In this document: in pieces, positions 5,070 to 44,147 of the stretch
Layout of the letters: each line of letters opens with the position of its first letter
Numbering within the stretch: the stretch's first letter is position 1
UHGV virus genome: UHGV-0207246
Direction: 5' to 3' (one strand)
Source: a virus
DNA length: 44,163 bases
Made by a program: the position numbers and the translations under genes
The notes under the pieces: generated by a model
Seen by the model: only the letters and a program-made list of their open reading frames with translations
Databases searched by the model: none
Told to the model about the DNA's origin: nothing

Positions 5070-5482
5070 TGGGCTACTTTGAGGACTTAACAAAAGCGTT
5101 CGATGTGCCGCTGGTAGCCTTCGGAACCGCCAACGGCATCAAGGTTGCACTTGAAAACATCGACGCGCCGACGTCAACCGATACCCCGTATCTGGCGAGT
5201 TACATGCTACTCGCGGATACCGAGCAGGCGGATTTGTTCTTCACGGAACAACGCTCTGGTATCTATCAGGTCGACATTAACTACGCATCGGTGAAAGGTA
5301 GCGCGCCAATCAATAAAATGGCAGACTTACTTAACACGGCGTTTAAAGCAGGTAAGTCATTTTCACGTAACGACATCTGCGCCGAGGTTCAATCGGTTAG
5401 CCTGGGGCCGCTGATTGTAGAAAACGGATGGGCCAAACGGCCATTGTCAATTAACTTTATTGCATTCACCAAGAGGCTGTGA
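5066..5482 (+). CDS. tail terminator protein candidate
   Basis: Synteny immediately upstream of major tail protein. Confidence 0.4.
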   Translation: MMGYFEDLTKAFDVPLVAFGTANGIKVALENIDAPTSTDTPYLASYMLLADTEQADLFFTEQRSGIYQVDINYASVKGSAPINKMADLLNTAFKAGKSFSRNDICAEVQSVSLGPLIVENGWAKRPLSINFIAFTKRL

Positions 5483-6651
5483 ATATGGCTACAACTCCTT
5501 TTAAGGGCGCGAATACCGCGCAATTCTATGTGGCGGAAGTGACCCCGGGCGTAACACCGGATAACCCGGTATGGTCGCCGTTGCGCAATACGGGCGGTGT
5601 TCCGGCCATTACCCGCGACACGCTGACCTCCAATGAACTTGACGGCAGCCGTGAAACTACATCCATCCGCACCGGCAACAAGCAGGTTAGCGGAGAATAC
5701 GCTATTGAGCTTAGCTCGAAAAGCCAGGACGACTGGTTAGCCGGGGCTTTAGGCTCTACGTGGCAATCCGGCGTTTCTCTGTCCGGGCTGTCTATTACCG
5801 TCGCACCGGCGGGAAAGACATTCACCCGTGCAGAAGGTAGCTTTATTTCTGACGGCGTTGAAGTGGGGGACTTAATCGCGTTCACCGATTTAACTGGCGA
5901 TAACGCCAAACCGTTTATCGTAACCGAGGTAAGTGCGACAGTTGTCACCGGTGCTGGTACCCAACATACTCTGACCACTGAGACCGCCACTACTGCGGCT
6001 AAAACTGGCGATAAGCTGGAAACCGGTAGCCAGTGTAAGACGTTCTCTATTCTCACCTGGTACAAAGGCCAGTGTGGTGGGGCCGACGCGTACACGCTGA
6101 CCAAAGGCGTGGAAGTTTCTGGCTTCACTATTGAGCAGGCCGTTAACGCGATGGTAACTGGCAGCTTCCCGTTCATCGGTCGCAGTCAGGAGATTCTCGC
6201 CACGCAGCCGACAGGTTCTGATTTCTCCTCTGTCACGTTTGGTGACGAGCCGTTCTCTTCGGTTGACGTTTCTGTGTTCGATGGCTCAACACCGTTGCGC
6301 TGCGACAGCCTGGCCATCACCAACGACAACAGCGCGTCCGCTCAGTTCGAACTCGGCAACACTAACGTGGCGTTTGTGGAGCGTAGCCGCGCGGCTAACA
6401 CCTTCTCTATCTCTGGTAAGCTGTACGACATGGCTATGATTCAGAAGTTTATCAACGAACAGCAGGTAGAGATTAACTCTATTCTGGCGGGGGTAAACGG
6501 GGCTATGTCTTTCAGTTTAAAACGTGCGGAACTGACAGCGGTTACACCTGAGATTGGCGGACCTGAGTCAATCACTCAGTCTATTGAAGGCCAGGCTACT
6601 GGCAACCAGTACCAGTCGTCTATTGTTATTCAGCGTATCACCTACGCATAA
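5479..6651 (+). CDS. major tail (tube) protein
   Basis: 390 aa ORF after neck genes and before chaperone/tape-measure genes; followed by strong terminator. Confidence 0.6.
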   Translation: MNMATTPFKGANTAQFYVAEVTPGVTPDNPVWSPLRNTGGVPAITRDTLTSNELDGSRETTSIRTGNKQVSGEYAIELSSKSQDDWLAGALGSTWQSGVSLSGLSITVAPAGKTFTRAEGSFISDGVEVGDLIAFTDLTGDNAKPFIVTEVSATVVTGAGTQHTLTTETATTAAKTGDKLETGSQCKTFSILTWYKGQCGGADAYTLTKGVEVSGFTIEQAVNAMVTGSFPFIGRSQEILATQPTGSDFSSVTFGDEPFSSVDVSVFDGSTPLRCDSLAITNDNSASAQFELGNTNVAFVERSRAANTFSISGKLYDMAMIQKFINEQQVEINSILAGVNGAMSFSLKRAELTAVTPEIGGPESITQSIEGQATGNQYQSSIVIQRITYA

Positions 6652-6655
6652 AACT

Positions 6656-6679
6656 AAGGCCCCGAAAGGGGCCTTTTCT
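6656..6679. terminator. bidirectional rho-independent terminator
   Basis: AAGGCCCC-GAAA-GGGGCCTT flanked by A-run and T-run between convergent genes. Confidence 0.75.
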
Positions 6680-6909
6680 TACTCATCAATATTGCTTCGG
6701 TATTCCCGTAACTTCTCCAGACTTTCAATTGCTTCCGCTAAGTCTGTTCCGGTATCCTTGTGACCGCGCAGGCCCATACACAACAGCTTCTTCAATGCGT
6801 GCTGTAGCGCCGGGTCACGGATATCGAAAGCACGGAGAACATCATAAACGTCTACTGTCATAGTGCTGCCGTGAATGTTTGTCATTGTTCGGTTGTATTT
6901 TGAAGTCAT
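6679..6909 (-). CDS. DUF3310-like small phage protein
   Basis: Pattern VYDVLRAF...LQHALKKLLCMGLRGHKDTG.DLAEAIESLEKL resembles the DUF3310 family consensus (from memory). Confidence 0.45.
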   Translation of the reverse strand: MTSKYNRTMTNIHGSTMTVDVYDVLRAFDIRDPALQHALKKLLCMGLRGHKDTGTDLAEAIESLEKLREYRSNIDE

Positions 6910-8036
6910 CCCAGCATCTCCGGTGAAATAGTTAAACGTGCGACCTCACCATATTCGGCGCTATAAGTAATTACATTAGCACTGCGGCCCGACATCCATC
7001 CGCCGCGGGAGGCGTAGGCGTCTTTAGCCGCTAAGGTGCGGTGTTGCTCAACAACCATGTTACGGCTTTCTACAATCTTCTGGTGGTGCAGATGGCCTAC
7101 GTGGGCGTAGCTGTAAACACTCTCGCCGAACGCTTTGCGGAACTTGGCAATCATAACCGGTTCGATAGCATCGAAGCGCGATTTATGCCCGTGGTGAAAG
7201 AACAACGTCGTTTTGCCGTGTTGCACCATCTTGTAAACGTCTGGTGACGTATCGACAATCACTCGGCTGTCGTTTGAGTATAAAACCGTGAACATTTCGG
7301 CGAGCCATACAGAGCCTACAGGGTCGTGGTTACCTTGAACTATTAAGAGTTTGACTGTGTGATGTTTAACAAGCGCCATATCGACAACACGACGCACCAT
7401 ACGAATCATGTAGCGAACTAGTTTCTGATAGCGAGTATCGGCGTCTAACACATGACGCGACTCAGGGGTAACGGCATCAAGACTATCGAAGTGCGCGAAG
7501 TCTCCTAGCAGATTAATAACTCCTGTTCCCGCGTCCGGTGCTTTCTGAAACGCCGCGTCGAACCATCGAGAGAACAGGTCTTCTGCAATCTTCATGTCCC
7601 AGTCGTCGCCGCTCTCGTCTGCCCATGCAAGCATACCGAGATGGAAATCAGACACAGTGTAAAGATTGAGAAGTTTATCGTCGCGTTTGGCGCGAGTCGC
7701 TTTAACAGGCGCAACAGGTGTAATCTCTGACTTCATGCCTTCAATTACGGCTTTCATCAACTCGACCTGACGTTCAGCATCGGTGTCAGTCTTAACCCAT
7801 TGCAACTTAGTGTTGCCGAACTCGTCCACCAGGGACGACGTGCCTTTAATCTTGTAGCCGTCCGGCACAAGGTGACTAACGTCGCGCCCGTGGCCTACAC
7901 CTTTCTTAGCCAGCTTCGCTTTACGGATACGAATAACGCGGTCTGAGATGCCGTATTTACGGGCGATATCAATAATCTTCATCCCGGCGTTCAATTCTTC
8001 CTGTAACTGTTCGTCGGTTATTTTCTTCTGGGCCAT
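6906..8036 (-). CDS. N-terminal HTH domain fused to calcineurin-like metallophosphoesterase
   Basis: MPP motifs in order: DFHLG, GDFAHFD, GNHD, GHLHH; N-terminal IIDIARKYGISDRVIRIRKAKL is HTH-like; RBS GAGGAAG. Confidence 0.65.
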   Translation of the reverse strand: MAQKKITDEQLQEELNAGMKIIDIARKYGISDRVIRIRKAKLAKKGVGHGRDVSHLVPDGYKIKGTSSLVDEFGNTKLQWVKTDTDAERQVELMKAVIEGMKSEITPVAPVKATRAKRDDKLLNLYTVSDFHLGMLAWADESGDDWDMKIAEDLFSRWFDAAFQKAPDAGTGVINLLGDFAHFDSLDAVTPESRHVLDADTRYQKLVRYMIRMVRRVVDMALVKHHTVKLLIVQGNHDPVGSVWLAEMFTVLYSNDSRVIVDTSPDVYKMVQHGKTTLFFHHGHKSRFDAIEPVMIAKFRKAFGESVYSYAHVGHLHHQKIVESRNMVVEQHRTLAAKDAYASRGGWMSGRSANVITYSAEYGEVARLTISPEMLG

Positions 8037-8101
8037 GCTTACTTCCTCGTGTTTAGGATTTGTCCTATTTAACCACAGTGCATTCCTTTAAATAAAGGCG
8101 A

Positions 8102-8428
8102 CTATTTACTTTCTGCGCCTATCGCCCACCCTGTCATTACCATTTGCAGACGGGTGGCTGTCAGTAGGCTATAGAAAGCATCTCCGTTTTTCTCTACCGA
8201 ACGTATCACTGTGTAGGTTACGGCCTGCGGGGGTAGGCCCGATTTACCAACCTCTACAGCGGCCTCACACTCGCGAACGGTAGAGTCCTTAAATGCCTTT
8301 ACAATAGTAGGGTCGGCTTTATCGAGAACACCAGAAGTCATAAGAACAGATTCACTAAATACCTGTTCGCACGGAGACCCAAAAGCGGCAAAAGACATAA
8401 ACCCCAGAGCTAATACTAATTTACGCAT
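8102..8428 (-). CDS. secreted/periplasmic protein (signal peptide), function unknown
   Basis: N-terminal MRKLVLALGFMSFAAFGS signal-peptide-like; first gene downstream of an early-type promoter. Confidence 0.5.
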   Translation of the reverse strand: MRKLVLALGFMSFAAFGSPCEQVFSESVLMTSGVLDKADPTIVKAFKDSTVRECEAAVEVGKSGLPPQAVTYTVIRSVEKNGDAFYSLLTATRLQMVMTGWAIGAESK

Positions 8429-8456
8429 AATTATTTCCTCAGTAGGTTACAGGTGA

Positions 8457-8485
8457 ATAGTACCCTATTATATTGGGGTGTGCAA
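8457..8485 (-). promoter_or_regulatory. class I early-type promoter (TTGCAC-17-TACTAT) for the minus-strand island
   Basis: Reverse complement TTGCACACCCCAATATAATAGGGTACTATTCACC matches the 30384-30412 promoter at about 32 of 35 positions; contains AATAG-N4-CTATT inverted repeat. Confidence 0.6.
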
Positions 8486-8592
8486 GTAGTGTGTTAGAAT
8501 AAGTTTGCGCCTAGTGTCGCACACGAAAAGCGGGTGGTTCCCGTCTGGCGCAACACCATCAACCAGTAACCTCTTAACCAAAGGATTAAAGA

Positions 8593-9009
8593 ATGAAACT
8601 TTCTGATTTTTATTTTGCGGACCGCCACGCCGCCGGTACTAAAATGCCTATCCTTCTGCCCAGTGGTAAAGATTCCGGTGAATGGTTGCAGGTCATCGGC
8701 CCCGATTGTGACGCTGGTGTTCGTGCGGGCCGTGCCTACACAACGGCAATTCGACGCCTTACGGAAGAACTTGCGCCATTAGATAAAGAGTGCGAGGCGC
8801 TGAATAACTGGGCGCGCTATAATGATGAGAAGGGCTGGCGGGTGATGGACCTGAACAAGCAGCTTGCCGTGGAAATCGTCACCGGTTGGTCATTCGACGA
8901 ACCATTCAGCAAAGAGGCGCTTGCTAACCTGTTCGACCAGTACAGTGGGTTGGCAGAGGCCGTAGTTAAGCATCACACCGATAGCCGTGAGAAACTCTCG
9001 GAAAAGTAA
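8593..9009 (+). CDS. tail assembly chaperone (gpG-like)
   Basis: Position immediately upstream of tape measure; followed by overlapping ORF in -1 frame. Confidence 0.55.
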   Translation: MKLSDFYFADRHAAGTKMPILLPSGKDSGEWLQVIGPDCDAGVRAGRAYTTAIRRLTEELAPLDKECEALNNWARYNDEKGWRVMDLNKQLAVEIVTGWSFDEPFSKEALANLFDQYSGLAEAVVKHHTDSREKLSEK

Positions 9010-9098
9010 AAGCGCTGTATGAATTTGCGCAATGGTGCTTTGTCGACCGCCACAAACGTAAGCAATTCGACGACATCGCGGCGGGCCACCAGGCGGCT

Positions 9099-9371
9099 TT
9101 GATTGCAATGGGCGTGATTAAAGAACCGCAGATGAAAGAAGCGACGGGGCCGGAATGCCCCGTTTCTCTTATCGACGTGTTCGAGAAATACCGTGCCATT
9201 AAATTCCTACAGCGCGAAACAGATGATACTATCGTTATAATCCCGCGCGATGCGCTCAAATGGCAAGATTTGGTAGCGTTTCGTGATGTCGCCGGTTACG
9301 GCATAAGTTTGTTCGAAGCCGAGGTTATCATGGGCTTAGACGGAATATTTGAGGGCAGAGAAGATGGCTGA
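9099..9371 (+). CDS. tail assembly chaperone extension (gpT-like), probably expressed as a -1 frameshift fusion with 8593..9009
   Basis: -1 frame is open from 8991; shifty A_AAG at 9003-9006 just before the zero-frame stop; classic G/GT arrangement before tape measure. Confidence 0.45.
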   Translation: MIAMGVIKEPQMKEATGPECPVSLIDVFEKYRAIKFLQRETDDTIVIIPRDALKWQDLVAFRDVAGYGISLFEAEVIMGLDGIFEGREDG

Positions 9372-11676
9372 TACGGCTTCCCTAATTGCCAGAGTAAAAA
9401 CAGAAGGCGCTGATGTAGCCGCTAAACAGCTTGACGCTATGGCGGCATCCGCAGACCGTGCGGACACATCCGTAAACAAACTAACGCCGGATGTTAATAA
9501 AGTAAACTCCGCTACGTCTAAAGCGGCTTCTGACGGTTTCGCTAAATTCCGTAACGCCGCCGGGCAGGTAGGCTTCCAGGTGCAGGACATGGTCGTCCAG
9601 TTGCAGTCCGGCACGTCTGCATTCGTAGCAATCGGGCAACAAGGCTCTCAGCTTGCGGGTGCTTTCGGCCCTGGTGGCGCGGTGCTTGGGGCCGTAATTG
9701 CTCTTGCGTCAGCAATCGGTGGTGTCCTGTATAAATCGTTAACCGAAGCAGAAGGCAGTTCAAAAGACCTCGAAGCCGCACAGAAACAGCTAAAAGATAC
9801 TTTCCAGCAAACGGCGTCCGGCTCTCTCGAACTGACAGACGGCCTTATCCAGCTTACCCAAATCAGCAGAGAAGCGGCGGAGACTCAGCTTGCGCTGGCT
9901 AAGGCTAACGCGGACCTTATCGCACAGCAAACAGCTAAAGCTGTTCGTGAGGACGCAGAATCATGGGAGACATGGAAGGCATCCACAGCATCAGCTATCA
10001 GCCAGTACGATGCATTGGTCTCTAAAGGTGCGGATGTAGGCGACACGTTAGAAAAACTCGGTGGCACTTACGAGGGTAACATCGTAGGCGTCAACATGCT
10101 GGCGCAGAATATCGCAGAGCTTAGCAGTAAGTTTGGGGTTAACCGTGACCAGGCGCTGGAGATGATAGCGGCGCAGAGTGCGTTTAACAAAGAGCCAACC
10201 GCCGAGAATGCCCGTCGCATCGCCGATGTGTTTACCGACTGGCTCGGTAATACAAAACAGTTGAACCCGGAACTTATCCGCCTGACCGACAATGCCAACA
10301 AGAACGCCACGGCACTGGAGAACGCGGAGAAGTCCGCAAACGCGGCGGCGGAGGCCCAAAAGAATCTTGGTCGTAACGTCAACTCAACAACGCAGAGATT
10401 CCAGGAACAGAACGAAGCTATCGTCAAAAACCAGCAAATCGCTATCTTAAGTGACCGCGAGCGTATCCGTGCGCAAGCTGAACTGGATAAGCAGGCGTTC
10501 GCTAAACGTGAAGCTGTCACCAAAGAACAGATCGCCGCGTATAATGCTGCGCGTGACACGGAAGCACAACAAGACATCGCTCGCATCGACGCTACCGAAA
10601 AAGCGAAGGCCGACCGCGAGGCCAAATCGAACGAGAAACGGCTGGCGGCACAAGCCAAACGCGAAGAAACGGCGGCTGAACGACAGAAAAAAGCGGCGGA
10701 AGATTTCCTGGCTACTGTCGACCGCACAACCGGAGATGAGATTTCGCGCATTACCGCTGCGGAAGAACAGAAACTGGCGAAACTGGAGGAGTTCAACCGC
10801 GCCGGAACGATAAGCCAGCAGCAGTATGAAAACGCCAAAACTCAAATTATGCTCACAGCCGAGCAGGCCAGACAGGAAGAACTGGATAAGAAAAGAAAAG
10901 AGCAGCAGGAAAAGCAGCAGAAAGGCGAGGACTTCATGGCACAGATTATGGGTCAGAACGCTACTGAGCTTGAGCTTCTCGACATCCAGGAACAGCAGAA
11001 ACTGGAGGTAGCGGATAAGTACCGTGAGCAGGGGCTTATTAGTGAGAAGCAGTACCAGGCGGCGCTTAACGCCATCAATGAGCAGTATGCTACGAAGCGT
11101 GCCGACGCAACGGCAACCGCCTTCGGTAACATGGCTTCAAACATCGGGTCTGCGTTGGGTGAGGCTTCTGGCGCGTATAAGGCATTCGCTATCGTACAGG
11201 CCACTATAGCCACGTACACCGCAGCTATTGAAGCGTATAAGTCAACGGCTGCTATCCCTGTAGTTGGCCCGTTCCTGGCCCCCGTAGCCGCTGCTGCTGC
11301 AGTTGGGGCGGGTATGGCGCAGATTTCCGCCATCAGGTCCGCGCGTGAGCAGGGCGGTCAGTTATCCGCAGGACAGGCTTCCACCATCGCCGAACGCGGT
11401 AAACCCGAAGTTATCATGCCCGCTGGGGCATCGCGTGTGCGCACGGCACAGCAGATGAAAGAAATTATGGGGCAAAACGGGTCTTCTTCCGGCCCATCTA
11501 ATGTTACTATCGTAAATAACACGAGTTCTCAAATTGGCAACGTATCCACCGAACAAGATGATGAAGGCCGTTTGCGTATCATCATCGAGGAGCAGGTGGC
11601 CGCCTCTTTGCAGAACAGCAACAGTAAGATTAGCAAGGCCCGCAAGGCCACAAGAAATGCGCCGGGGTTCAAATAA
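9364..11676 (+). CDS. tail tape measure protein
   Basis: About 770 aa, Ala/Gln/Glu/Lys-rich coiled coil, hydrophobic Gly/Ala-rich segments, located after chaperone pair; start at ATG with RBS GAGGG (track uses upstream TTG). Confidence 0.8.
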   Translation: MADTASLIARVKTEGADVAAKQLDAMAASADRADTSVNKLTPDVNKVNSATSKAASDGFAKFRNAAGQVGFQVQDMVVQLQSGTSAFVAIGQQGSQLAGAFGPGGAVLGAVIALASAIGGVLYKSLTEAEGSSKDLEAAQKQLKDTFQQTASGSLELTDGLIQLTQISREAAETQLALAKANADLIAQQTAKAVREDAESWETWKASTASAISQYDALVSKGADVGDTLEKLGGTYEGNIVGVNMLAQNIAELSSKFGVNRDQALEMIAAQSAFNKEPTAENARRIADVFTDWLGNTKQLNPELIRLTDNANKNATALENAEKSANAAAEAQKNLGRNVNSTTQRFQEQNEAIVKNQQIAILSDRERIRAQAELDKQAFAKREAVTKEQIAAYNAARDTEAQQDIARIDATEKAKADREAKSNEKRLAAQAKREETAAERQKKAAEDFLATVDRTTGDEISRITAAEEQKLAKLEEFNRAGTISQQQYENAKTQIMLTAEQARQEELDKKRKEQQEKQQKGEDFMAQIMGQNATELELLDIQEQQKLEVADKYREQGLISEKQYQAALNAINEQYATKRADATATAFGNMASNIGSALGEASGAYKAFAIVQATIATYTAAIEAYKSTAAIPVVGPFLAPVAAAAAVGAGMAQISAIRSAREQGGQLSAGQASTIAERGKPEVIMPAGASRVRTAQQMKEIMGQNGSSSGPSNVTIVNNTSSQIGNVSTEQDDEGRLRIIIEEQVAASLQNSNSKISKARKATRNAPGFK

Positions 11677-20279: not shown

Positions 20280-20564
20280 CTAACTATAATAGTTCGCTAT
20301 TAGGTCGTCAACCTGTTTGAACGACCCGACGACAAAAACATTCGCACCACGTTTACGCATCCGCTCATGCTCTCGTAACTGGTGTGGGTCAGGCTTCGTG
20401 CTTTCGTCTTTCTTCACCTCGACGAACCAGACGATGCCGCCCGGGAGAATTACCAGCAGGTCGGGAGCGCCGGAGCGCCCCTCATAAGACAGTTTACGGA
20501 CGAGGCCCCCGATGGCCTCGAATCGCTCTTTTGCGTATTTCTGTATTTTTCCTTCCGGGGTCAT
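20280..20564 (-). CDS. VRR-NUC domain nuclease (PD-(D/E)XK)
   Basis: Motif GAPDLLVILPGGIVWFVEVKK; start set at ATG (track begins at upstream TTG). Confidence 0.55.
   Translation of the reverse strand: MTPEGKIQKYAKERFEAIGGLVRKLSYEGRSGAPDLLVILPGGIVWFVEVKKDESTKPDPHQLREHERMRKRGANVFVVGSFKQVDDLIANYYS
20283..20311 (-). promoter_or_regulatory. class II promoter (TTGACG-17-TATAGT)
   Basis: Reverse complement TTGACGACCTAATAGCGAACTATTATAGT; near-identical spacer to promoters at 24601 and 26753; lies within 3' end of upstream CDS. Confidence 0.6.
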
Positions 20565-24600: not shown

Positions 24601-24629
24601 ACTATAATAGCTTACTATTCAGGTGTCAA
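24601..24629 (-). promoter_or_regulatory. class II promoter (TTGACA-17-TATAGT)
   Basis: Reverse complement TTGACACCTGAATAGTAAGCTATTATAGT. Confidence 0.65.
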
Positions 24630-26752: not shown

Positions 26753-26781
26753 ACTATAATAGCGAACTATTCACATGTCAA
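26753..26781 (-). promoter_or_regulatory. class II promoter (TTGACA-17-TATAGT)
   Basis: Perfect -35, 17 bp spacer TGTGAATAGTTCGCTAT, -10 TATAGT, about 30 nt upstream of ATG. Confidence 0.7.
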
Positions 26782-26845
26782 TGGGTTTTTCTAAAATAAT
26801 TAATATGGTACTATTCGCATATCAACTAACTAAGGAGTAATTGAT

Positions 26846-27061
26846 ATGCAACCCTCTGAACTAGGCATCCGTGTAGAACAACGCCGCAAAGAACTCGGCA
26901 TCTCCCAGCGCCGTCTGGCTGTCCTGGCTGGCGTTTCACAGGGCGCGATTAACCAGCTGGCACTTGGGGTAACTCAGGACGTCCGCCCGGCAACGCTGTT
27001 TAAACTGGCGGAAGTGCTGGAAGTAGACGCCAAGTGGCTGGCGTTCGGTGAAGGGGCTTAA
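26846..27061 (+). CDS. XRE-family helix-turn-helix transcriptional regulator (Cro/CI-like)
   Basis: HTH ISQRRLAVLAGVSQGAINQLALG; RBS TAAGGAG; isolated plus-strand gene with its own terminator. Confidence 0.7.
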   Translation: MQPSELGIRVEQRRKELGISQRRLAVLAGVSQGAINQLALGVTQDVRPATLFKLAEVLEVDAKWLAFGEGA

Positions 27062-29493: not shown

Positions 29494-29784
29494 TCACCGT
29501 TTAGCCAACTCTTCCAGCAAATTTTTATACTCTTCAAAATATTCCTCGACCAAATCGTCGCCGAAATAGAAGTCGATATACTCGATATTATCTCCTACGT
29601 TAAGCGATGCCGACATGGTGCTTAGTTGGCGTAAGCTAATTAGCTTCATTTCTGTTTCTACGCAGAAAGGCCGGTAGGTATCAAGGTGACAAGAGATATT
29701 GAAACATAAGGCGAACTCTCCCGCCACGGTGTGGACCATATACACTTCGTTTTCTGCTTTATTGTGGAAAATTACACCTTTCAT
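29494..29784 (-). CDS. hypothetical protein
   Basis: ORF track; ATGA-coupled downstream of HTH gene. Confidence 0.4.
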   Translation of the reverse strand: MKGVIFHNKAENEVYMVHTVAGEFALCFNISCHLDTYRPFCVETEMKLISLRQLSTMSASLNVGDNIEYIDFYFGDDLVEEYFEEYKNLLEELAKR

Positions 29785-29963
29785 TTCACGTTCTCCTTAA
29801 TCCACGCTTCAACTTTATTTCGATCAAATGTACCGGGTAAACGGCGACCCATAACCTTAATACAACAATCCGGGAATTTACCACTGCGCAACCAGTTATT
29901 AATTGTCTGACGTGTTACCCCGATACGTTCGGCGACTTCATTCTGTGTCATGTAATGCTGCAT
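29781..29963 (-). CDS. small HTH DNA-binding protein (AlpA/excisionase-like fold)
   Basis: MTQNEVAERIGVTRQTINNWLRSGKFP; first gene of leftward operon. Confidence 0.55.
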   Translation of the reverse strand: MQHYMTQNEVAERIGVTRQTINNWLRSGKFPDCCIKVMGRRLPGTFDRNKVEAWIKENVK

Positions 29964-30061: not shown

Positions 30062-30091
30062 TTGAAAGTTCTTGACTCATGTTTGTATAAT
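30062..30091 (+). promoter_or_regulatory. rightward promoter (TTGAAA-18-TATAAT) of a non-coding unit
   Basis: Perfect -10 TATAAT, -35 TTGAAA with 18 bp spacer; no ORF before the terminator at 30291. Confidence 0.55.
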
Positions 30092-30118
30092 GGTTTTGGG
30101 ACTTGTATGTATTACGGA

Positions 30119-30150
30119 GTTGACGAACCCTCCCCGAGGGATTCGTCAAC
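30119..30150. repeat. 32-bp near-perfect palindrome GTTGACGAACCCTCCCCGAGGGATTCGTCAAC
   Basis: Outer arms GTTGACGAA/TTCGTCAAC and inner arms CCCTC/GAGGG. Confidence 0.8.
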
Positions 30151-30290
30151 CCCTCCCAGACAGCTGAGATGCTTGCCTTGGGGTTTAAGGATAAGTGTAT
30201 CTAAATCTCATTTAAAGAAGTAACCAGCTGAAATATCTACTGTTTCTTCCTATGCCGTAGATTCGCAACCGTAAAAATGTAACGATTATT

Positions 30291-30318
30291 GGGCAGGCTT
30301 AAGGCCTGCCCTTTAGTT
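30291..30318 (+). terminator. rho-independent terminator
   Basis: GGGCAGGC-TTAAG-GCCTGCCC followed by TTTAGTT. Confidence 0.6.
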
Positions 30319-30383: not shown

Positions 30384-30412
30384 TTGCGCACCCCAACATA
30401 ATAGGATACTAT
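30384..30412 (+). promoter_or_regulatory. class I early-type promoter (TTGCGC-17-TACTAT)
   Basis: TTGCGCACCCCAACATAATAGGATACTAT; conserved leader to RBS GAGGAG. Confidence 0.6.
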
Positions 30413-30445
30413 TCACTTATCGAAACGAGACAGAGGAGTGGGGTT

Positions 30446-30643
30446 ATGTTTAAGAAGGGTCAGTTGGCTAGGGATATAGGTACAGGGCTTTTAGTTCAGG
30501 TTGTCAGCGAGCCTATTAATATTGAATCTGAATTTAAAGGATTCTTGCCTGTTAAAACTGTTACAGGTTCATGGATAGCGTATCGCAAGCCATCCGATTT
30601 AGAACTCATCGGCAACAATTTTAAATTCAAAGGGGCGAAGTGA
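30446..30643 (+). CDS. hypothetical early protein
   Basis: ORF track; RBS GAGGAG. Confidence 0.45.
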   Translation: MFKKGQLARDIGTGLLVQVVSEPINIESEFKGFLPVKTVTGSWIAYRKPSDLELIGNNFKFKGAK

Positions 30644-30882
30644 TGGAAGAATTAATTTGTGTGAAAAGTAAATTAGCTGAGTTCAAGCCGGGAAGTTCAT
30701 ATGTCGGCTATTCAACACCTGATTACGATTATGTAATAGATGAAACAGGAAGCGAATGGGTAGTTGACCAGTTCGGGGACGACGAATTCGGGGTGTTCGA
30801 TGGTGGACTGAAAGCTTCATTCACAACGGCATCGAATCATGATGCTCGCGCCGACGACTCTGAGGGAGGTTGCCGTGAATAA
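30640..30882 (+). CDS. hypothetical acidic early protein
   Basis: ORF track; ATGA coupling. Confidence 0.45.
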   Translation: MMEELICVKSKLAEFKPGSSYVGYSTPDYDYVIDETGSEWVVDQFGDDEFGVFDGGLKASFTTASNHDARADDSEGGCRE

Positions 30883-30942
30883 TTACCCGTTCATTTTAAT
30901 CATCAGCTCCGTTTATGTGGTGCACGCGCTGTGGGGTTTGGT

Positions 30943-31143
30943 GTGAGCAAGTGGGTTAAGTGTAGTGAGCGGATGCCGTGCTGCGAGCCGGGTAGGTGGT
31001 CAAAAGATGTTATTGCACTAAGTGATACCGGGGATGTGTTCCGTCTAGCCTGTCAAGGTGAATACTGGCAAAGAACGTCAGCATTCGTTGAATCCGGTTC
31101 CGAAAAAGTGGTTGCATGGATGCCGTTTCCCGAGGAGGACTAA
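30943..31143 (+). CDS. DUF551-like protein (paralog 1)
   Basis: (M)SKWVKCSERMP...VVAWMPFPEED parallels paralog MSKWIKCSEQMP...THWRKLPKPP; GTG start inferred from paralog alignment. Confidence 0.5.
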   Translation: MSKWVKCSERMPCCEPGRWSKDVIALSDTGDVFRLACQGEYWQRTSAFVESGSEKVVAWMPFPEED

Positions 31144-31146
31144 GTT

Positions 31147-31290
31147 ATGAGAGAAGCATTCGAACGGTGGGCTGTCGTCGAGGGTCTGCCGGTTAACAAA
31201 GGTTCAAAGAAAGAGTACCTGAACGTTAAGACGCGTCTAGCGTGGCGGGCGTGGAAAGCTGGTGTGCAAGCTGTGATGAATACGAGGTGA
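31147..31290 (+). CDS. hypothetical small protein (47 aa)
   Basis: Strong RBS GAGGAGGA; hand-translated MREAFERWAVVEGLPVNKGSKKEYLNVKTRLAWRAWKAGVQAVMNTR. Confidence 0.4.
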   Translation: MREAFERWAVVEGLPVNKGSKKEYLNVKTRLAWRAWKAGVQAVMNTR

Positions 31291-31494: not shown

Positions 31495-31629
31495 CAGGTC
31501 AATAGGTTACTATTTGACTGAGTGACTTACGCTGCTACACAGCAGCGTACAACTTTAGATTAGTGTCGTCAAAAAGCGACACTTTCACCGAACGCAACAA
31601 TAGAAGCGATTATTGCAGGAGATGCAACA

Positions 31630-31807: not shown

Positions 31808-31836
31808 TTGCACACTAAGATAGAATAGGCTACTAT
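31808..31836 (+). promoter_or_regulatory. class I-type promoter variant (TTGCAC-17-TACTAT)
   Basis: TTGCACACTAAGATAGAATAGGCTACTAT; downstream leader ACAAACGAGAGGAGAG parallels the 30413-30445 leader. Confidence 0.55.
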
Positions 31837-31867
31837 TCATTTACACAAACGAGAGGAGAGACGGAAG

Positions 31868-33370: not shown

Positions 33371-33647
33371 CATCCTGAAAAGAAGCGGCCTTGCGCCGCT
33401 GTCACCGAGAGCGAACACCAGGATATACAAGCGCCGAGGTAACGCGCTGTACCCTGAGATTCAGGCCAGACGCAAAGCTGTCCGCGCCTGTGGGTTCCAG
33501 AACGGGAAGGCCGTGAATCTGGGTGAGTTCAAGACAAAGGAACGCGCAGCAATCGCTAACCGGCTATTTAATTACTGGAAATCGCTGGGATACGAGGATA
33601 TTCCAACGAAACCGCAGAGACGACAATACATCTGGAGACATAAATGA
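33354..33647 (+). CDS. AP2-like DNA-binding domain protein candidate
   Basis: Motif NGKAVNLGEFKTKERAAIANRLFNYWKSLGY resembles AP2-type domains; RBS GGAGG. Confidence 0.35.
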   Translation: MSLATDILKRSGLAPLSPRANTRIYKRRGNALYPEIQARRKAVRACGFQNGKAVNLGEFKTKERAAIANRLFNYWKSLGYEDIPTKPQRRQYIWRHK

Positions 33648-34084
33648 CGACTATCGCGTTTGACGGAAAGACAATGGCATGTGACACGCGTGTTGTGTGC
33701 GGGAGTAACTGTTACAACACAGACACGAAGATATACGAGAACGATTTTGCTGTTATCGGGGTGGCTGGTGATGCGGGGGTAGGGGATATTCTCGTTGGTG
33801 ACCGAGGAATTTTAGTGCCAAAGCGCTATGACTTCGATTTCGAAGCTCTGGTGTTCGTGAAAGACACAGAAAAGGTGTACAAAGTCGCGTTTTATAAATC
33901 GTGGGATTGTGCACTTAGTTCAGTTATTCCGGTTGCCGATAGTTTTTCAGCCGTGGGGTCTGGTTCTCCTTATGCACTGGCAGCTATGGAATGTGGATAC
34001 TCGGCACACGGTGGTGTAGCCGTTGCGTCGAAGTTCGACACTAACACCGGCGGCAAGATTATTACCAAACAACTATTAGGATAA
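33644..34084 (+). CDS. HslV/proteasome beta-subunit-like Ntn hydrolase peptidase
   Basis: N-terminal MTTI (Thr nucleophile after Met removal), IGVAGDAGVGD and SAVGSGSPYALAAME paralleling E. coli HslV motifs. Confidence 0.5.
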   Translation: MTTIAFDGKTMACDTRVVCGSNCYNTDTKIYENDFAVIGVAGDAGVGDILVGDRGILVPKRYDFDFEALVFVKDTEKVYKVAFYKSWDCALSSVIPVADSFSAVGSGSPYALAAMECGYSAHGGVAVASKFDTNTGGKIITKQLLG

Positions 34085-34143
34085 TTCCTAACCGTGGTAT
34101 CCTCCAGTTACTGCATACTTAATACGCACCTGGAGGATTCATC

Positions 34144-34452
34144 TTGGATAAATTTACTGAAACAGTGACAGGCTGGCTTCTGGCTGCCGCACTAGCCGGT
34201 GGGGTAATCGGACTACGACAACATAAGTCCGTTATTTCTGGCCCTATCGACGGCTTCTGCTTTATCGCTACTGGCTTCACTTGTGCCGTATTTGGCGCAC
34301 CTCTCGCAGCTCAATGGTTCGGTATCACTGGCGACCGTGAAATCGCTGGCCTGGGCTTCATTATCGCTATTCTCTGGATGCCTATCTATTCCCGTCTCTC
34401 TGGTATCGTCGCCGGAGAATACATTGCACGTCGAGGAGGCACAGATGAATGA
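34144..34452 (+). CDS. holin candidate (three hydrophobic segments)
   Basis: TTG start after RBS GGAGGA; membrane protein directly upstream of second membrane protein and endolysin. Confidence 0.5.
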   Translation: MDKFTETVTGWLLAAALAGGVIGLRQHKSVISGPIDGFCFIATGFTCAVFGAPLAAQWFGITGDREIAGLGFIIAILWMPIYSRLSGIVAGEYIARRGGTDE

Positions 34453-35466: not shown

Positions 35467-35495
35467 TTGACTATTACCTTAGACCCTATTATATT
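35467..35495 (+). promoter_or_regulatory. promoter (TTGACT-17-TATATT)
   Basis: TTGACTATTACCTTAGACCCTATTATATT; shares the CCCTATTATATT core with class I elements. Confidence 0.55.
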
Positions 35496-35529
35496 TACTC
35501 CATCGACAATGAGAACGGAGTAGAGAGAA

Positions 35530-36988: not shown

Positions 36989-37134
36989 TTGAGTTTGATG
37001 ATGTTTTATTTGAGGAATACCACGGAATGGTGTTTTTGACCGTGATGTACGGTGTTTACTCAAAGTCCTTTAACGGGTTTTCGGAAGCAGATTGCATAAA
37101 TCAATTACTGCAATGGGTGGCAAGCCGAAAATAA
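36985..37134 (+). CDS. hypothetical small protein (49 aa)
   Basis: RBS GGGGAGAGGGGA; ATGA coupling. Confidence 0.35.
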   Translation: MIEFDDVLFEEYHGMVFLTVMYGVYSKSFNGFSEADCINQLLQWVASRK

Positions 37135-37144
37135 CCACACCACA

Positions 37145-37168
37145 AGCCCTCTACGGAGGGCTTTTCTG
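37145..37168 (+). terminator. rho-independent terminator
   Basis: AGCCCTC-TACG-GAGGGCT then TTTTCTGT. Confidence 0.6.
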
Positions 37169-37202
37169 TACATCCCGCCTAATACCCCTATATAATCCCT
37201 TT

Positions 37203-37245
37203 AGACGCGTAGGGCGCGTCTGGTGCGCTCTGATGGTCAGACGCA
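37203..37245. repeat. interlocking inverted repeats built on GACGC/GCGTC just upstream of terS (candidate pac/terminase recognition or regulatory site)
   Basis: AGACGCG-TAGGG-CGCGTCT and CGTCTG...CAGACG within 43 bp, preceded by TATAAT at 37191-37196. Confidence 0.3.
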
Positions 37246-37261
37246 TATGCAAGGGGATTCT

Positions 37262-37774
37262 ATGAAGCTGAAACTTAAGCAGCCATCACCAGAGGTGGTG
37301 CAAGCTGCACATGAAGAAGCTGTTAGCGCAAACCGTCGCCGTAAACGACCGCGCGGTAAACAGAGCCTTTATCAATCATCCCGTAATTCCGCCGCGTTGT
37401 GGGACCCGGACTATTGCGACGAATTGATTCGTTTCTTCGACCGCACGTCGTGGGAACTTGTACCTACGTCTAAGGGTGACGAACGCCCCCTTATTCAGGA
37501 TAAGCCGCCGTCATTGGCCCGCTTTGCCTTACACATCGGCGTCACTATCCCGATTATTAAGCTGTGGTTGCGCGAGATTCCAGCATTTGCGGAAGCCTAT
37601 GAAACAGCACAGGCGCTGGAAGAGGCGTATTTCACTGAGACAGGGGCTGCGGGTATCTCCGCTACGTTTGCTGCCGCGAAACTGGGGCTGAATAAGAAAG
37701 AAGAATCGACTGGCGAGGGTTCTGAACCTATCGAGATTCGTTTTGTTAAGGCTGTTAAACCGGGGGTGGAGTAA
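37262..37774 (+). CDS. terS: terminase small subunit
   Basis: About 170 aa gene immediately upstream of and overlapping the large terminase; RBS AAGGGGA. Confidence 0.55.
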   Translation: MKLKLKQPSPEVVQAAHEEAVSANRRRKRPRGKQSLYQSSRNSAALWDPDYCDELIRFFDRTSWELVPTSKGDERPLIQDKPPSLARFALHIGVTIPIIKLWLREIPAFAEAYETAQALEEAYFTETGAAGISATFAAAKLGLNKKEESTGEGSEPIEIRFVKAVKPGVE

Positions 37775-39009
37775 TGGATATCCCATTAACCGAACCCCAA
37801 CAAGACTTTGTATTCAGCACAAAAACACATCCGGCTATTGTCGCAGGACTGGGGGCGGGTAAGTCCCGCGCGGCAACGATGCGCCTTTTGTATCTTATGT
37901 TGCGCGAGCGCGGGATAAACACCCTGTACACCATGCCTACGTATGACCTGTTGAAGCTGCGCGCCATCCCTGGTGTGGTTGATGACCTGAATATGATGGG
38001 GCTTAAGTATGACCTCAACAAATCGGAATACAGTATCCACGTTAAGGGGTACGGTACTATGTTTTTCAGGTCATACGACAACCCGAACCGTCTAATCGCT
38101 TTTGAAGTAGCCCATTCTGTCGCCGATGAACTTGACGTTCTTACTAAAGAACAGGCGTCTCTGGTGTGGCGTAAAATTTCAGAGCGTACCCGACAGCCTT
38201 GCAGAGGGGGTAACAGTATTGCCGCTGTGACTACCCCTGACCAGGGATTCTCTGGATTTGTGTATGACTATTGGGTCACTAACGCTGACAGTTCTACGGA
38301 ACTGATTAAGGCGTCTACATTGTCGAACCCATATTTACCTGACGGCTACGTCGAACAGATACGCAGGAACTACGATGCGGCTTTAGCCGATATGTATATC
38401 AACGGTGAATTTGTCAGTTTGACTGCTAATAAGGTGTATCACTATTTCAAACGAAGCACCCATGACTCCACTCGCACCTTGCGGAACGGAGATGCGCTCC
38501 ACATAGGGCTGGACTTTAATATTGGTGGATGTTGCGCCACCGTGAGCGTTATCGAAGACGGCAACCCGACGGTTGTTGATGAGTTTGTCAGCCATAATAC
38601 CGACGACTTCGTCAATAATGTCAGGATACGGTATCCAGGCCATACGGTTACGGTTTACCCTGACGCGTCTGGTCGCTCAGGCCACACTAACGCATCATTA
38701 TCCGACATAGGTATCATCGAAAAGGCCGGCTTACGCGTTAACGCTCCAAGTAAGAACCCATTCGTTAAAGACAGAATAAACGCGGTTAACGCTCTTTTGT
38801 CGCATAGCCGTTTGAGGGTTAACACTTCAAAATGCCCTAAACTAACGCAGTCACTGGAGACGCAGGGGTATAACGATAATGGTGAACCAGAGAAGTTTAA
38901 AACCCACCCGGCGATTGACGACTGGAACGACAGTTTAGGCTATTGTATGCATAGGTTGTTCCCTGTTGTTCGCCCTGTTATCAATACACCAGTTCGTTTC
39001 GCACTTTAA
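37774..39009 (+). CDS. terL: terminase large subunit
   Basis: Walker A-like GLGAGKS near N-terminus; position between terS and portal. Confidence 0.7.
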   Translation: MDIPLTEPQQDFVFSTKTHPAIVAGLGAGKSRAATMRLLYLMLRERGINTLYTMPTYDLLKLRAIPGVVDDLNMMGLKYDLNKSEYSIHVKGYGTMFFRSYDNPNRLIAFEVAHSVADELDVLTKEQASLVWRKISERTRQPCRGGNSIAAVTTPDQGFSGFVYDYWVTNADSSTELIKASTLSNPYLPDGYVEQIRRNYDAALADMYINGEFVSLTANKVYHYFKRSTHDSTRTLRNGDALHIGLDFNIGGCCATVSVIEDGNPTVVDEFVSHNTDDFVNNVRIRYPGHTVTVYPDASGRSGHTNASLSDIGIIEKAGLRVNAPSKNPFVKDRINAVNALLSHSRLRVNTSKCPKLTQSLETQGYNDNGEPEKFKTHPAIDDWNDSLGYCMHRLFPVVRPVINTPVRFAL

Positions 39010-40493: not shown

Positions 40494-40518
40494 AAAAAGG
40501 CCCCTTTCGGGGCCTTAG
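40494..40518. terminator. bidirectional rho-independent terminator
   Basis: AAAAAGGCCCC-TTTC-GGGGCCTT then AGTTTTATT. Confidence 0.7.
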
Positions 40519-40520
40519 TT

Positions 40521-40733
40521 TTATTCATGTGTCGCTGCTCTGAAATTAAGTTCTTCACGAGGGATAAAACCTCTATCAGTTTTCACATAACAAGTTGTGT
40601 AACTATACATTACCTCTCTGCCTGTGACATCTCCGTAGTTCTCACACCCGTGTTTATCTAAGCTACGTACACCAGCAGCAATTACCAGTGAAACTGCCAG
40701 TGTCGTCAATACCGCGATAATTAATTCTTTCAT
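40521..40733 (-). CDS. small exported/membrane-anchored Cys-containing protein (70 aa)
   Basis: N-terminal hydrophobic MKELIIAVLTTLAVSLVIAAG; driven by class I early-type promoter. Confidence 0.45.
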   Translation of the reverse strand: MKELIIAVLTTLAVSLVIAAGVRSLDKHGCENYGDVTGREVMYSYTTCYVKTDRGFIPREELNFRAATHE

Positions 40734-40766
40734 CTTTAAATCCCTTATCTCTCGTTTCGATAGCTG

Positions 40767-40795
40767 AATAGTACCCTATTATATTGGTGTCTGCA
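40767..40795 (-). promoter_or_regulatory. class I early-type promoter (TTGCAG-17-TACTAT)
   Basis: Reverse complement TTGCAGACACCAATATAATAGGGTACTAT; same region may carry a rightward TCGATA-17-TATATT promoter. Confidence 0.55.
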
Positions 40796-40840
40796 AATAT
40801 TATTTTTATGCGTTACACTGGCGATACTACAGGAGGGCAT

Positions 40841-43240: not shown

Positions 43241-43272
43241 AAAAGGCCCCGTATGGGGCCCTAGTTTTATTT
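43241..43272. terminator. bidirectional rho-independent terminator
   Basis: AAAAGGCCCC-GTAT-GGGGCC then AGTTTTATTT. Confidence 0.65.
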
Positions 43273-43788
43273 AAATCGCGCAGGCATTAACACCATAAAG
43301 GCCGTGTTTGAAAATAGTATTTTACATCCTCTGGTTTGGTCCTGGAAATCGAAACGAGCAATTTCATTTTTGTATGCCTTAGAAATCTTGTACGCGTCTG
43401 CCAAATAACGCAGGGTGAACCCTATACTATCGACAACACCCGGTGTGATGTGCGCCACGCGTCTCCAGTCAGGAAAGTTTCCTTCTACAACATCTACCGG
43501 AAGTGTACATATAAGCGCACGATTATCGTCATAGAAAGATACACTGCCGTTGTCGTGGTTTACCTCCGCGTAGTTAAATTTAGAAGGCTCTCTCCCTTTG
43601 ATGTCTATGAGAGTCCCTTTCTCAACGTTGGTCTTCACATTGTCGCAGAACAATCTATGACCGTCCGTAGACACTATCAATCCTTCAGGGTCTATGTAAA
43701 AAGCGTTCAAATAGTAGCGAACATCATTTTTAGCCCTGCATATTTTCGCCCCTACATACGCAGGGAAAGTAATTACTGTAGTAACCAT
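43267..43788 (-). CDS. hypothetical protein (173 aa) expressed from class I early-type promoter
   Basis: ORF track; RBS AGGAGATGAAAA. Confidence 0.5.
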   Translation of the reverse strand: MVTTVITFPAYVGAKICRAKNDVRYYLNAFYIDPEGLIVSTDGHRLFCDNVKTNVEKGTLIDIKGREPSKFNYAEVNHDNGSVSFYDDNRALICTLPVDVVEGNFPDWRRVAHITPGVVDSIGFTLRYLADAYKISKAYKNEIARFDFQDQTRGCKILFSNTAFMVLMPARFK

Positions 43789-43815
43789 TTTTCATCTCCT
43801 GTTTAAATTAACTGA

Positions 43816-43844
43816 ATAGTACCCTGTTATGTTGGTGTGCGCAA
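43816..43844 (-). promoter_or_regulatory. class I early-type promoter (TTGCGC-17-TACTAT)
   Basis: Reverse complement TTGCGCACACCAACATAACAGGGTACTAT. Confidence 0.55.
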
Positions 43845-43898
43845 ACTATTTATTTACGTATTCCAGTTATTCCACCGAATTGTAAATGTTAGAATAAA

Positions 43899-43912
43899 CT
43901 ATTCGAATAGTT
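43899..43912. repeat. perfect 14-bp palindrome ACTATTCGAATAGT abutting a -35 element
   Basis: Uses the same CTATT/AATAG pentamer found in the promoter families. Confidence 0.7.
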
Positions 43913-43939
43913 GACTTTTCACTAAAAATATGATAAGCT
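43911..43939 (+). promoter_or_regulatory. rightward promoter (TTGACT-17-TAAGCT with TGn extended -10)
   Basis: TTGACTTTTCACTAAAAATATGATAAGCT. Confidence 0.45.
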
Positions 43940-43945
43940 CCACCT

Positions 43946-44147
43946 GAGCTTGTGAAGTATGAACAAGCGACCGCGGCGCGGGCAGGTAACGGAGCGGGAC
44001 GTAAGTCCTGAGTGTAGTTACGCTGACGCGTTCGGAAGGGCCATACTCTATTGCTTGTGTAAAAAGTAACTGGTTTACTGAGATTACGCCGTTTCTATGT
44101 TTAAATGATAAGGACTAGCGCCCCGCTTTAAGGCGGGGCTTTACTTA
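43946..44147 (+). ncRNA. candidate non-coding transcript or structured leader (about 200 nt)
   Basis: No ORF over 10 codons between promoter 43911-43939 and terminator 44120-44147. Confidence 0.3.
44120..44147 (+). terminator. rho-independent terminator/attenuator upstream of the spanin RBS
   Basis: GCCCCGCT-TTAA-GGCGGGGC then TTTACTT. Confidence 0.55.

Follow-up and report, generated by a model that had tools for sequence, protein, structure and literature searches.

The 44,163-nucleotide viral genome UHGV-0207246 (the window, meaning here the whole stretch of DNA that was analysed) raises the question of why a few genes should lie on the minus strand in the midst of a long rightward array of structural genes, each group behind a near copy of the promoter that precedes a separate region of small open reading frames (ORFs). 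We analysed three such islands and consider it probable, at about 60%, that in this virulent Kagunavirus they are autonomous accessory cassettes akin to morons or PeSL units, each built from a phage promoter with an operator and a bidirectional terminator.

The assignment to Kagunavirus comes from a megablast search with positions 6000-9500, which returned 442 phage records. Escherichia phages KMB35 and Bas73 matched best (~94% identical along the whole query); beyond these the matches were mostly Kagunavirus and Jerseyvirus, of the subfamily Guernseyvirinae. This phage group has been described as virulent (PMC9825357), and no integrase or lysogeny module is annotated in the relatives Bas73 and K1G. 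Based on the Bas73 annotation and the ORFs of the window, the genome consists of a leftward (minus-strand) replication array, from 29963 down to 18637, and a rightward (plus-strand) array that starts at 30446 with small ORFs, continues through lysis genes, terminase, portal, head and tail, then crosses the end of the window to its start and finishes at about 18668. An earlier inspection of the letters alone (the sequence-only reading) had placed three minus-strand islands within the plus-strand structural genes, and the ORF list confirmed all five of their genes (lengths in amino acids, aa):

6679..6909, minus strand: island 1, 76-aa protein that resembles the C-terminal part of longer phage proteins (phrog_2452, phrog_17613)
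6906..8036, minus strand: island 1, 376-aa protein (phrog_704) with an N-terminal three-helix helix-turn-helix (HTH) and a calcineurin-like metallophosphoesterase domain
8102..8428, minus strand: island 1, 108-aa protein (phrog_14165) with a Sec-type signal peptide (MRKLVLALGFMSFAAFG/SP)
40521..40733, minus strand: island 2, 70-aa protein with two Cys and, at the N terminus, a hydrophobic stretch that is an anchor or a signal segment; GC content 40%
43267..43788, minus strand: island 3, 173-aa mini beta-sliding-clamp with the motifs TDGHRL, FPDWRRV and a C-terminal MPxR; GC content 43%

Promoters and terminators of the islands

A nearly identical promoter had been proposed before each island and at 30384-30412. 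Searching for the 29-nt motif TTGCRC-N17-TACTAT with up to three mismatches, we found exactly these four sites, at 8457-8485(-), 30384-30412(+), 40768-40796(-) and 43816-43844(-), and 0 copies in 100 dinucleotide shuffles. Alignment of the copies shows a conserved block of about 32 nt, TTGC...TACTATTCA. In each unit the first ATG follows the -10 hexamer at a distance of 27-34 nt, and the spacing between the hexamers of this promoter form, which we call class I, is exactly 17 bp in every copy. The motif family exceeds the four copies first noted, with a fifth class I form, three near-consensus promoters of a second form (type B) and one degenerate copy. All of them carry the palindrome discussed below:

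8457..8485, minus strand: class I promoter of island 1 (-35 TTGCAC at 8480-8485, 17-nt spacer, -10 TACTAT at 8457-8462)
8456-8469: palindrome AATAGTACCCTATT of the island 1 promoter, overlapping the -10
40768..40796, minus strand: class I promoter of island 2, TTGCAG-N17-TACTAT; palindrome at 40767-40780
43816..43844, minus strand: class I promoter of island 3, TTGCGC-N17-TACTAT; palindrome at 43815-43828, with one mismatch
30384..30412, plus strand: class I promoter before the rightward small-ORF region; palindrome at 30400-30413
31808..31836, plus strand: fifth class I-form promoter, within the rightward small-ORF region, TTGCAC-N17-TACTAT; palindrome at 31824-31837
20283..20311, minus strand: type B promoter upstream of the helicase block, TTGACG-N5-ATAG-N4-CTAT-TATAGT; same palindrome in a different register
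24601..24629, minus strand: type B promoter upstream of the genes for the single-stranded-DNA-binding protein and DNA polymerase, TTGACA-N17-TATAGT; palindrome in the spacer
26753..26781, minus strand: type B promoter before a 166-aa gene block and divergent from an XRE-type regulator gene, TTGACA-N17-TATAGT with the palindrome
26802-26815: degenerate palindrome copy upstream of the XRE gene

Among IMG/VR contigs of 41-45 kb together with the window, the exact 21-nt core of the class I promoter occurs 87 times, and the first genes behind it belong to no fewer than 18 unrelated families. In the 83 different sequence contexts of the core in this set, the TTGC of the -35 and the whole of TACTAT are invariant, and the -35 hexamer of the reverse direction is unconserved. 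The motif family is already in the literature in the form of PHIRE "phage promoters": the genome paper of fBC-Eco01 gives seven copies with the consensus tgAATAGTa-ccTATTat-T and calls them phage RNA polymerase promoters (PMC9825357), and the Golestan paper lists seven PHIRE motifs (PMC7203180). The fBC-Eco01 consensus is the reverse complement of the class I core. Thus the motif, like several of the genes treated below, is already present in publications or annotations.

In the Bas73 record, a minus-strand coding sequence (37112-37432) is annotated across the early promoter and is probably spurious. Downstream of the endolysin gene there is a good sigma-70-like promoter, TTGACT-17-TATATT at 35470-35498(+), which includes one half of the class I core (CCCTATTATATT) and may start a block of small ORFs and terminase genes.

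Each island ends in a hairpin that scores as a terminator on both strands, with a folding energy of -15 to -17 kcal/mol on either:

6648..6677, both strands: bidirectional terminator of island 1, hairpin at 6656-6675
40495..40524, both strands: bidirectional terminator of island 2, hairpin at 40497-40516
43241..43271, both strands: bidirectional terminator of island 3, hairpin at 43243-43262

The segment 6648-6677 is the exact reverse complement of 40495-40524, and the terminator element is repeated in five copies in the window. The islands had been described as bounded by bidirectional terminators. This holds for the 3' end, where the terminator converges on the upstream plus-strand gene, and fails for the 5' side, which is a divergent intergenic region.

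Exchange of cassettes among relatives

The evidence that these units are cassettes comes from related genomes in which they occupy other places. The segment 43241-43859, consisting of the terminator, the mini-clamp gene and the promoter, follows a Hoc-like gene in the window, fEg-Eco19, fFiEco02 and Schulenburg, and lies between the portal and head morphogenesis genes in fBC-Eco01, SHAK7693, phage 26, Shashou and Sciku. In pairwise mapping, the flanks of site 2 of fBC-Eco01 matched site 2 of the window at ~89%, and its interior matched site 3 of the window (43241-43859) at 96.5%; the alignments overlapped by 32 nt on the terminator and by 53 nt on the promoter. The reciprocal arrangement was found in EC3-1, in which positions 40495-40801 of the window, the 70-aa cassette, appear at 94.8% identity at the island-3 site, with overlaps of 31 and 56 nt. 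Sites 2 and 3 have thus exchanged contents twice, independently, with breakpoints located in the terminator and promoter repeats. Terminator, cargo and promoter moved together as a single unit, from phage to phage and among at least two sites.

Occupancy of the sites also varies. Bas73 and K1G do not have islands 2 and 3 as in the window; the flanking structural genes are adjacent there, and the terminator at the empty sites is a different, unidirectional one. Neither the 70-aa nor the 173-aa gene is present in Bas73, K1G, S4lw, EnJE1 or XY1. Their GC contents (40% and 43%) are lower than that of the genome (50%). The description of the island genes as accessory, made from the sequence, therefore stands in part: the islands are autonomous and the 70-aa and 173-aa genes are variable and low in GC, but the metallophosphoesterase gene is core and has a GC content of 50%.

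Homing endonuclease genes are common in these islands among relatives. Other opposite-strand genes, at the island sites or at additional ones, seen in relatives include a 216-aa gene between the tape-measure and minor tail genes of XY1 (5247-5897), a gene of EnJE1 (37211-37861) annotated as 'amidase' that has at best a weak KilA-N match, a cargo with a PAPS-reductase domain in S4lw (30464-31276) and a dpnA-type methylase in ER23.

A palindrome within the promoters

The promoter core is a palindrome of 14-16 bp, (T/G)AATAG-N4-CTATT(A/C). In an unbiased census of 5+5 palindromes, AATAG-N4-CTATT ranked first in the window, where 8 exact copies stand against an expectation of 0.04. It also topped the census in Bas73, K1G and XY1 (Kagunavirus) and in S4lw and EnJE1 (Jerseyvirus); the same census found it absent from the Cornellvirus SP-031 and the Dhillonvirus EK99P-1. 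The half-sites are fixed and the four central nucleotides are free (20 tetranucleotides in 33 unique sites), with flanks that prefer T/G and A/C. Read from the sequences, there are at least three registers of the palindrome with respect to the two promoter hexamers, -35 and -10. In class I, TTGCRC-N11-ATAG-N4-CTAT, the right half-site overlaps the -10 TACTAT; in type B, TTGAC(A/G)-N5-ATAG-N4-CTAT-TATAGT, it stands within a near-consensus sigma-70 promoter; and in the Jerseyvirus island-1 promoter it is displaced by 3 bp. Because the halves are fixed, the centre is free and several registers are used over core promoters, we read the palindrome as an independent element rather than as part of polymerase recognition, and it is probably the operator of a dimeric DNA-binding protein. 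A further exact copy, at 31501-31514 between early small ORFs, has no recognisable promoter around it and may be a stand-alone operator.

Two small regulators encoded in the window are candidates for the binding protein:

26846..27061, plus strand: 71-aa XRE/DicA-like HTH protein, an opposite-strand gene in the replication module
29781..29963, minus strand: 60-aa excisionase-family HTH protein, first gene of the leftward array

The XRE gene is a candidate by its setting, divergent from a type B promoter and with the degenerate palindrome upstream, which is the classic autoregulatory arrangement. It is unannotated yet present, at 96-97% identity, in Bas73 (34027-34239) and K1G (33428-33640). 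An XRE homologue is also present in Cornellvirus, which lacks the palindrome. The 60-aa protein was found in 6/6 palindrome-bearing genomes and in 0/2 genomes without the palindrome; the 443 phage records that contain it coincide almost entirely with the phage group. Both proteins are confined to essentially this group, and their distribution does not discriminate between them.

The HTH of the 376-aa metallophosphoesterase is unlikely to be the binder: Dhillonvirus EK99P-1 keeps a full-length homologue with 73% identity and has no such palindrome. A variant operator in Cornellvirus, ATTAG-N4-CTAAT, was rejected, as its three sites (two of them upstream of islands) are no more than expected by chance. 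EK99P-1 has another palindrome, TTGGT-N5-ACCAA, in three copies at 6037, 36438 and 39521. One precedes an opposite-strand island among the head genes and the other two precede early-region genes, as if this neighbouring genus followed the same plan with an operator of its own.

Proposed mechanism and alternatives

According to the explanation that we favour, host sigma-70 RNA polymerase would transcribe each island from TTGCRC-N17-TACTAT, giving transcripts with short leaders and what appears to be a strong Shine-Dalgarno sequence. The palindrome would serve as operator for a dimer of a phage HTH protein, either the 71-aa XRE or the 60-aa excisionase-family protein. Binding would most likely repress, because the palindrome overlaps the -10 or the spacer. 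Since the same palindrome lies on the promoters of replication genes and small ORFs, the islands would be switched together with the non-structural genes and not with the structural genes that surround them. The island terminator would stop antisense transcription from running into the upstream structural gene and would also end the transcript of that gene. The cargo expressed in this way would comprise an envelope-targeted protein in the slot that holds an Imm-like protein in most relatives, the core HTH-metallophosphoesterase, a small membrane or periplasmic Cys protein and a mini beta-clamp.

We offer a more general scheme tentatively, as a possibility that we would not expect to hold in full. 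In Kagunavirus and Jerseyvirus the cassettes may be operator-gated, plug-and-play units in which one small HTH protein times both the cargo and the replication genes. The promoter and terminator would move cargo between landing sites, and late rightward transcription, starting from promoter-leader-terminator units that resemble PR'-tR' of lambda, would read through the islands and silence them convergently.

Several observations weigh against the favoured explanation. The class I promoter matches the sigma-70 consensus weakly (TTGCAC 3/6, TACTAT 4/6, hence 7/12 for the two hexamers), has no extended -10 and was not listed by a generic sigma-70 scan; such a weak promoter may need an activator. 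The promoter scan also gave readings on the plus strand, GTTACA-17-TATATT at 8446-8474 and TCGATA-17-TATATT at 40757-40785. The recognition helices of the XRE proteins (SQGAINQ in Kagunavirus, SQSLITH in Jerseyvirus, TQSAISH in Cornellvirus) do not track the operator, the half-site being identical in Kagunavirus and Jerseyvirus despite their differing helices. The distribution of the other candidate, the 60-aa protein, fits the palindrome as a correlation over 8 whole genomes and the record count. Finally, there is the expression of a relative. In the one Kagunavirus study with time-resolved RNA sequencing, that of vB_Eco_K1B4, only four genes were classed as early, among them the homologue of the 60-aa HTH gene; most structural genes were middle, and the Imm gene of island 1 was labelled late, together with DNA polymerase and methylases (PMC12645636). 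These classes come from an experiment in which phage reads peaked at 8.9% and sampling extended to 120 min with a latent period of 30 min, and in which even DNA polymerase was 'late'; its supplements give a temporal class for part of the genes only. The K1B4 data do not support early expression of the islands, as the sequence-only reading had it. They group the Imm gene with replication genes and not with its structural neighbours, which is consistent with what a shared operator would predict.

The observations on promoter strength and timing lead to a serious rival, to which we give a lesser but real chance. Class I would here be a set of activator-dependent middle or late promoters, at which a phage factor reads TTGCRCACMCC in the style of MotA at T4 middle promoters, and the islands would come on after the immediate-early genes. 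Besides the weak hexamers (7/12) missed by the generic scan, this rival can point to the 11 nt of TTGCRCACMCC, almost invariant in the 83 contexts and far beyond what sigma-70 needs, to the near-consensus promoter, itself followed by a terminator, that lies directly upstream of the 'early' copy, and to K1B4, with its four early genes and an Imm gene in the latest class (PMC12645636). The poor design of that experiment lessens the weight of the last point, however, and the 17-bp spacing, the TAnnnT form of the -10 and the AT-rich upstream sequence fit sigma-70. Moreover, the same palindrome stands in near-consensus TTGACA-17-TATAGT promoters, which need no activator.

It is unlikely that the elements mainly or also serve the downstream plus-strand structural genes, with the palindrome in the type B register and late transcription restarting after the island. 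The two plus-strand readings would allow it, a head-morphogenesis gene begins about 45 nt past the element, and the late transcript from upstream meets a terminator at each island. The -35 position of these readings varies, however (TCGATA 23, AAGTTA 15, GGTGTA 15, GTTACA 7, others), against an invariant TTGC on the opposite strand. K1G is without a usable -35 there, the copies at 31808 and 30384 have no gene in the reverse direction, and island 3 has a separate plus-strand promoter at 43912-43940. No promoter-like reading was obtained from the reverse strand at 31808-31836. Because TTGC is invariant and the reverse hexamer variable, because K1G lacks a usable reverse -35 and because the 31808 copy is located inside a same-strand array, the sequence comparison favours the minus-strand orientation at the islands, as originally proposed. 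Still less probable is a purely recombinational function, in which the repeats are boundaries for recombination or homing with no transcriptional role. Cassette breakpoints do fall inside the repeats, and homing endonuclease genes are common there in relatives, but position and orientation are constant, with 27-34 nt from the -10 to the first start codon, the two hexamers keep their spacing, and the 31808 copy lies within a same-strand gene array. We give hardly any credence to the label used in the fBC-Eco01 paper, where the seven copies of the PHIRE motif are listed as 'phage RNAP promoters', that is, promoters of a phage-encoded RNA polymerase (PMC9825357). PHIRE detects repeats and does not test which polymerase uses them, and the geometry of the motif is that of sigma-70. 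We rejected the label because no RNA polymerase gene is annotated in the four related genomes Bas73, K1G, XY1 and S4lw; none is evident among the ORFs of the window.

Cargo of the islands

Island 1 is conserved across Kagunavirus and Jerseyvirus as a core 376-aa gene with variable neighbours, which in relatives are a polynucleotide kinase and an ATPase, HNH endonucleases, or a DNA-binding protein. In the window the first gene encodes the 108-aa protein, whose typical Sec-type signal peptide agrees with its description as a signal-peptide protein. Its homologues occur only in Guernseyvirinae (22 clusters). It has no Pfam match at E up to 1, hence none to Imm_superinfect (PF14373), and is not an Imm homologue. 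The slot that it occupies does belong mostly to that family. Among 28 IMG/VR copies of the first slot of island 1, 20/28 hold a short Imm-like membrane-protein family, 7/28 the 108-aa family and 1/28 a 97-aa membrane protein; these counts are for the island-1 site only, as a paralogous 145-nt element confounds the typing of 'early' copies by upstream flank. The slot holds a member of the Imm family in K1G, fBC-Eco01, XY1, EnJE1 and most IMG/VR relatives, and gp23 of K1G scores 48.6 bits against Imm_superinfect, for which the gathering cut-off is 27.9. Compared with the T4 Imm family, then, the slot is shared and the protein in the window, secreted and unrelated, is not. By its slot alone, the 108-aa protein may have a role in superinfection exclusion; the idea has real positional support.

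The 376-aa gene is core in Kagunavirus and Jerseyvirus and also occurs in Dhillonvirus, and its family comprises 4557 representative clusters. All catalytic motifs (DxH, GD, GNHD, H, GHxH) are present, and residues D130, H132, G178, D179, N236, H237, H282, G314 and H317 are invariant in 30 diverse homologues. Its AlphaFold2 model (pLDDT 88) has an N-terminal three-helix bundle. Among solved folds it comes closest to Mre11, to Rv0805, which is a cyclic-nucleotide phosphodiesterase, and to PolD DP1, with E values down to 3e-9. Pfam metallophosphoesterase scores fall below the gathering cut-off. Sequence searches of the PDB, with the single sequence and with a profile, gave nothing significant; the profile finds Mre11 and SbcD at E 0.09-0.15. 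The motifs and the predicted fold identify a calcineurin-like metallophosphoesterase, and the earlier label of HTH-metallophosphoesterase holds. In the model Rv0805 scores equal to Mre11, which leaves nuclease and phosphodiesterase indistinguishable here, and no SbcC-like gene adjoins the 376-aa gene. The label DUF3310-like, given earlier to the 76-aa protein, was not upheld: no Pfam match was found at E up to 1, and one GenBank record uses the name.

The 70-aa cassette of island 2 is rare and mobile, with related genes in Enterobacter and T4-like Acinetobacter phages; both Cys are kept in the one distant homologue aligned, from Dhillonvirus.

The 173-aa protein of island 3, previously considered an unknown, is beta-clamp-like by phmmer, AlphaFold2 model and Foldseek. 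It aligns to residues 144-252 and 312-365 of E. coli DnaN (phmmer). In its AlphaFold2 model (pLDDT 94.7) the top Foldseek matches are all beta clamps, with E ~1e-7 and a query-normalised TM of 0.68. Several GenBank records already name the family sliding clamp, and the PHROGs label 'RusA-like Holliday junction resolvase' looks like a misannotation. The family-invariant residues T41, D42, G43, R45, P106, W108 and R109 align with DnaN 172-177 and 241-247, in stretches that match TDGHRL and FPDYRRV of DnaN; the C-terminal MPxR is nearly invariant. The DnaN stretches 172-177 and 241-247 line the protein-binding cleft of the clamp. Because the invariant residues align with these cleft residues, the 173-aa protein could bind clamp-binding motifs, and it might sequester or recruit proteins that carry them. 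It has the clamp-domain fold and the conserved pocket motifs in common with DnaN; DnaN, however, is a 366-aa, three-domain monomer that forms rings, and the phage protein, at 173 aa, is less than half of it. The products of the largest cargo genes, the metallophosphoesterase and the mini clamp, look like proteins of DNA metabolism and not like exclusion or anti-defence factors.

Relation to known systems

The cassettes match the architecture of morons and, more closely, that of PeSL units. The PeSL (promoter-early stem-loop) cassettes of T4-type phages, mobile regulatory units that mediate modular shuffling, are the subject of Arbiol et al. 2010 (PMC2839356) and Comeau et al. 2014 (PMC4122927). 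They are reportedly promoter/stem-loop repeats that flank variable ORFs, with breakpoints inside the motifs. Both systems have a repeated promoter and terminator around variable, mostly unknown ORFs, swaps between relatives that break inside the motifs, and regulatory repeats that double as recombination substrates. PeSL, however, belong to T4-type myoviruses and are co-oriented with their surroundings in hyperplastic regions, whereas the present islands lie on the opposite strand inside a structural operon of a 44-kb siphovirus and have a bidirectional terminator and a palindromic putative operator common to replication-gene promoters. Morons of lambdoid phages are said to go back to Juhala et al. 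2000 and Hendrix et al. 2000. Like them, the islands are extra genes with their own promoter and terminator between genes of a late operon, present or absent among relatives and atypical in GC content. Unlike them, they occur in a virulent phage and not in temperate phages with prophage expression, and the likeness is one of architecture only. In addition, the promoter type of the islands is common to the phage's own non-structural genes, and the metallophosphoesterase island is core.

Repressors of the Cro/CI or Cox/Apl type act at palindromic operators that overlap core promoters. The window resembles these systems in having a short HTH gene divergent from operator-bearing promoters and operators that overlap the -10 or spacer of several promoters; it differs in that there is no lysogeny module and that about ten putative operators are scattered around the genome, some of them among the structural genes. 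Their common palindrome suggests a simple, testable regulatory circuit in a virulent siphovirus.

These findings extend the moron and PeSL concepts to another phage group and overturn no current idea. Kagunaviruses are small, common coliphages that are represented in the BASEL collection and used for synthetic biology, and standard cassettes at three landing sites offer natural insertion points and a ready-made expression module. For gene discovery, the cassettes supply a short list of cargo worth assaying for superinfection exclusion or host takeover, namely the two envelope proteins (108 and 70 aa), the mini beta-clamp and the further families, over a dozen, that follow the same promoter.

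Neighbouring non-coding units

Immediately upstream of the 'early' class I copy at 30384 lies a much stronger promoter, at 30062-30091(+), TTGAAA-18-TATAAT, with an 11/12 match. It is followed by about 200 nt with no ORF of at least 50 aa starting downstream and then by an intrinsic terminator at 30291-30311. The 30062-30311 transcript folds unusually well (z = -4.9) and includes a long, nearly perfect hairpin. It may act as a small RNA or as a termination-controlling leader. An Rfam scan of the whole window gave zero matches.

A second such unit starts with the promoter TTGACT-17-TAAGCT at 43912-43940(+), continues with a 180-nt non-coding leader and a terminator at 44120-44139, and is followed by the ribosome-binding site and ATG of the Rz spanin and head genes. 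The promoter-leader-terminator layout of 43912-44139 is similar to PR'-6S-tR' of lambda. The leader is ~97% identical across 20 unique homologues and is more conserved than the surrounding coding DNA. Among homologues of the two non-coding leaders identity is about 97%, too high for an analysis of covariation. In many relatives the place of the 30062-type element, ahead of the early promoter, is taken by a paralogue of the 43912-type element (78-88% identity).

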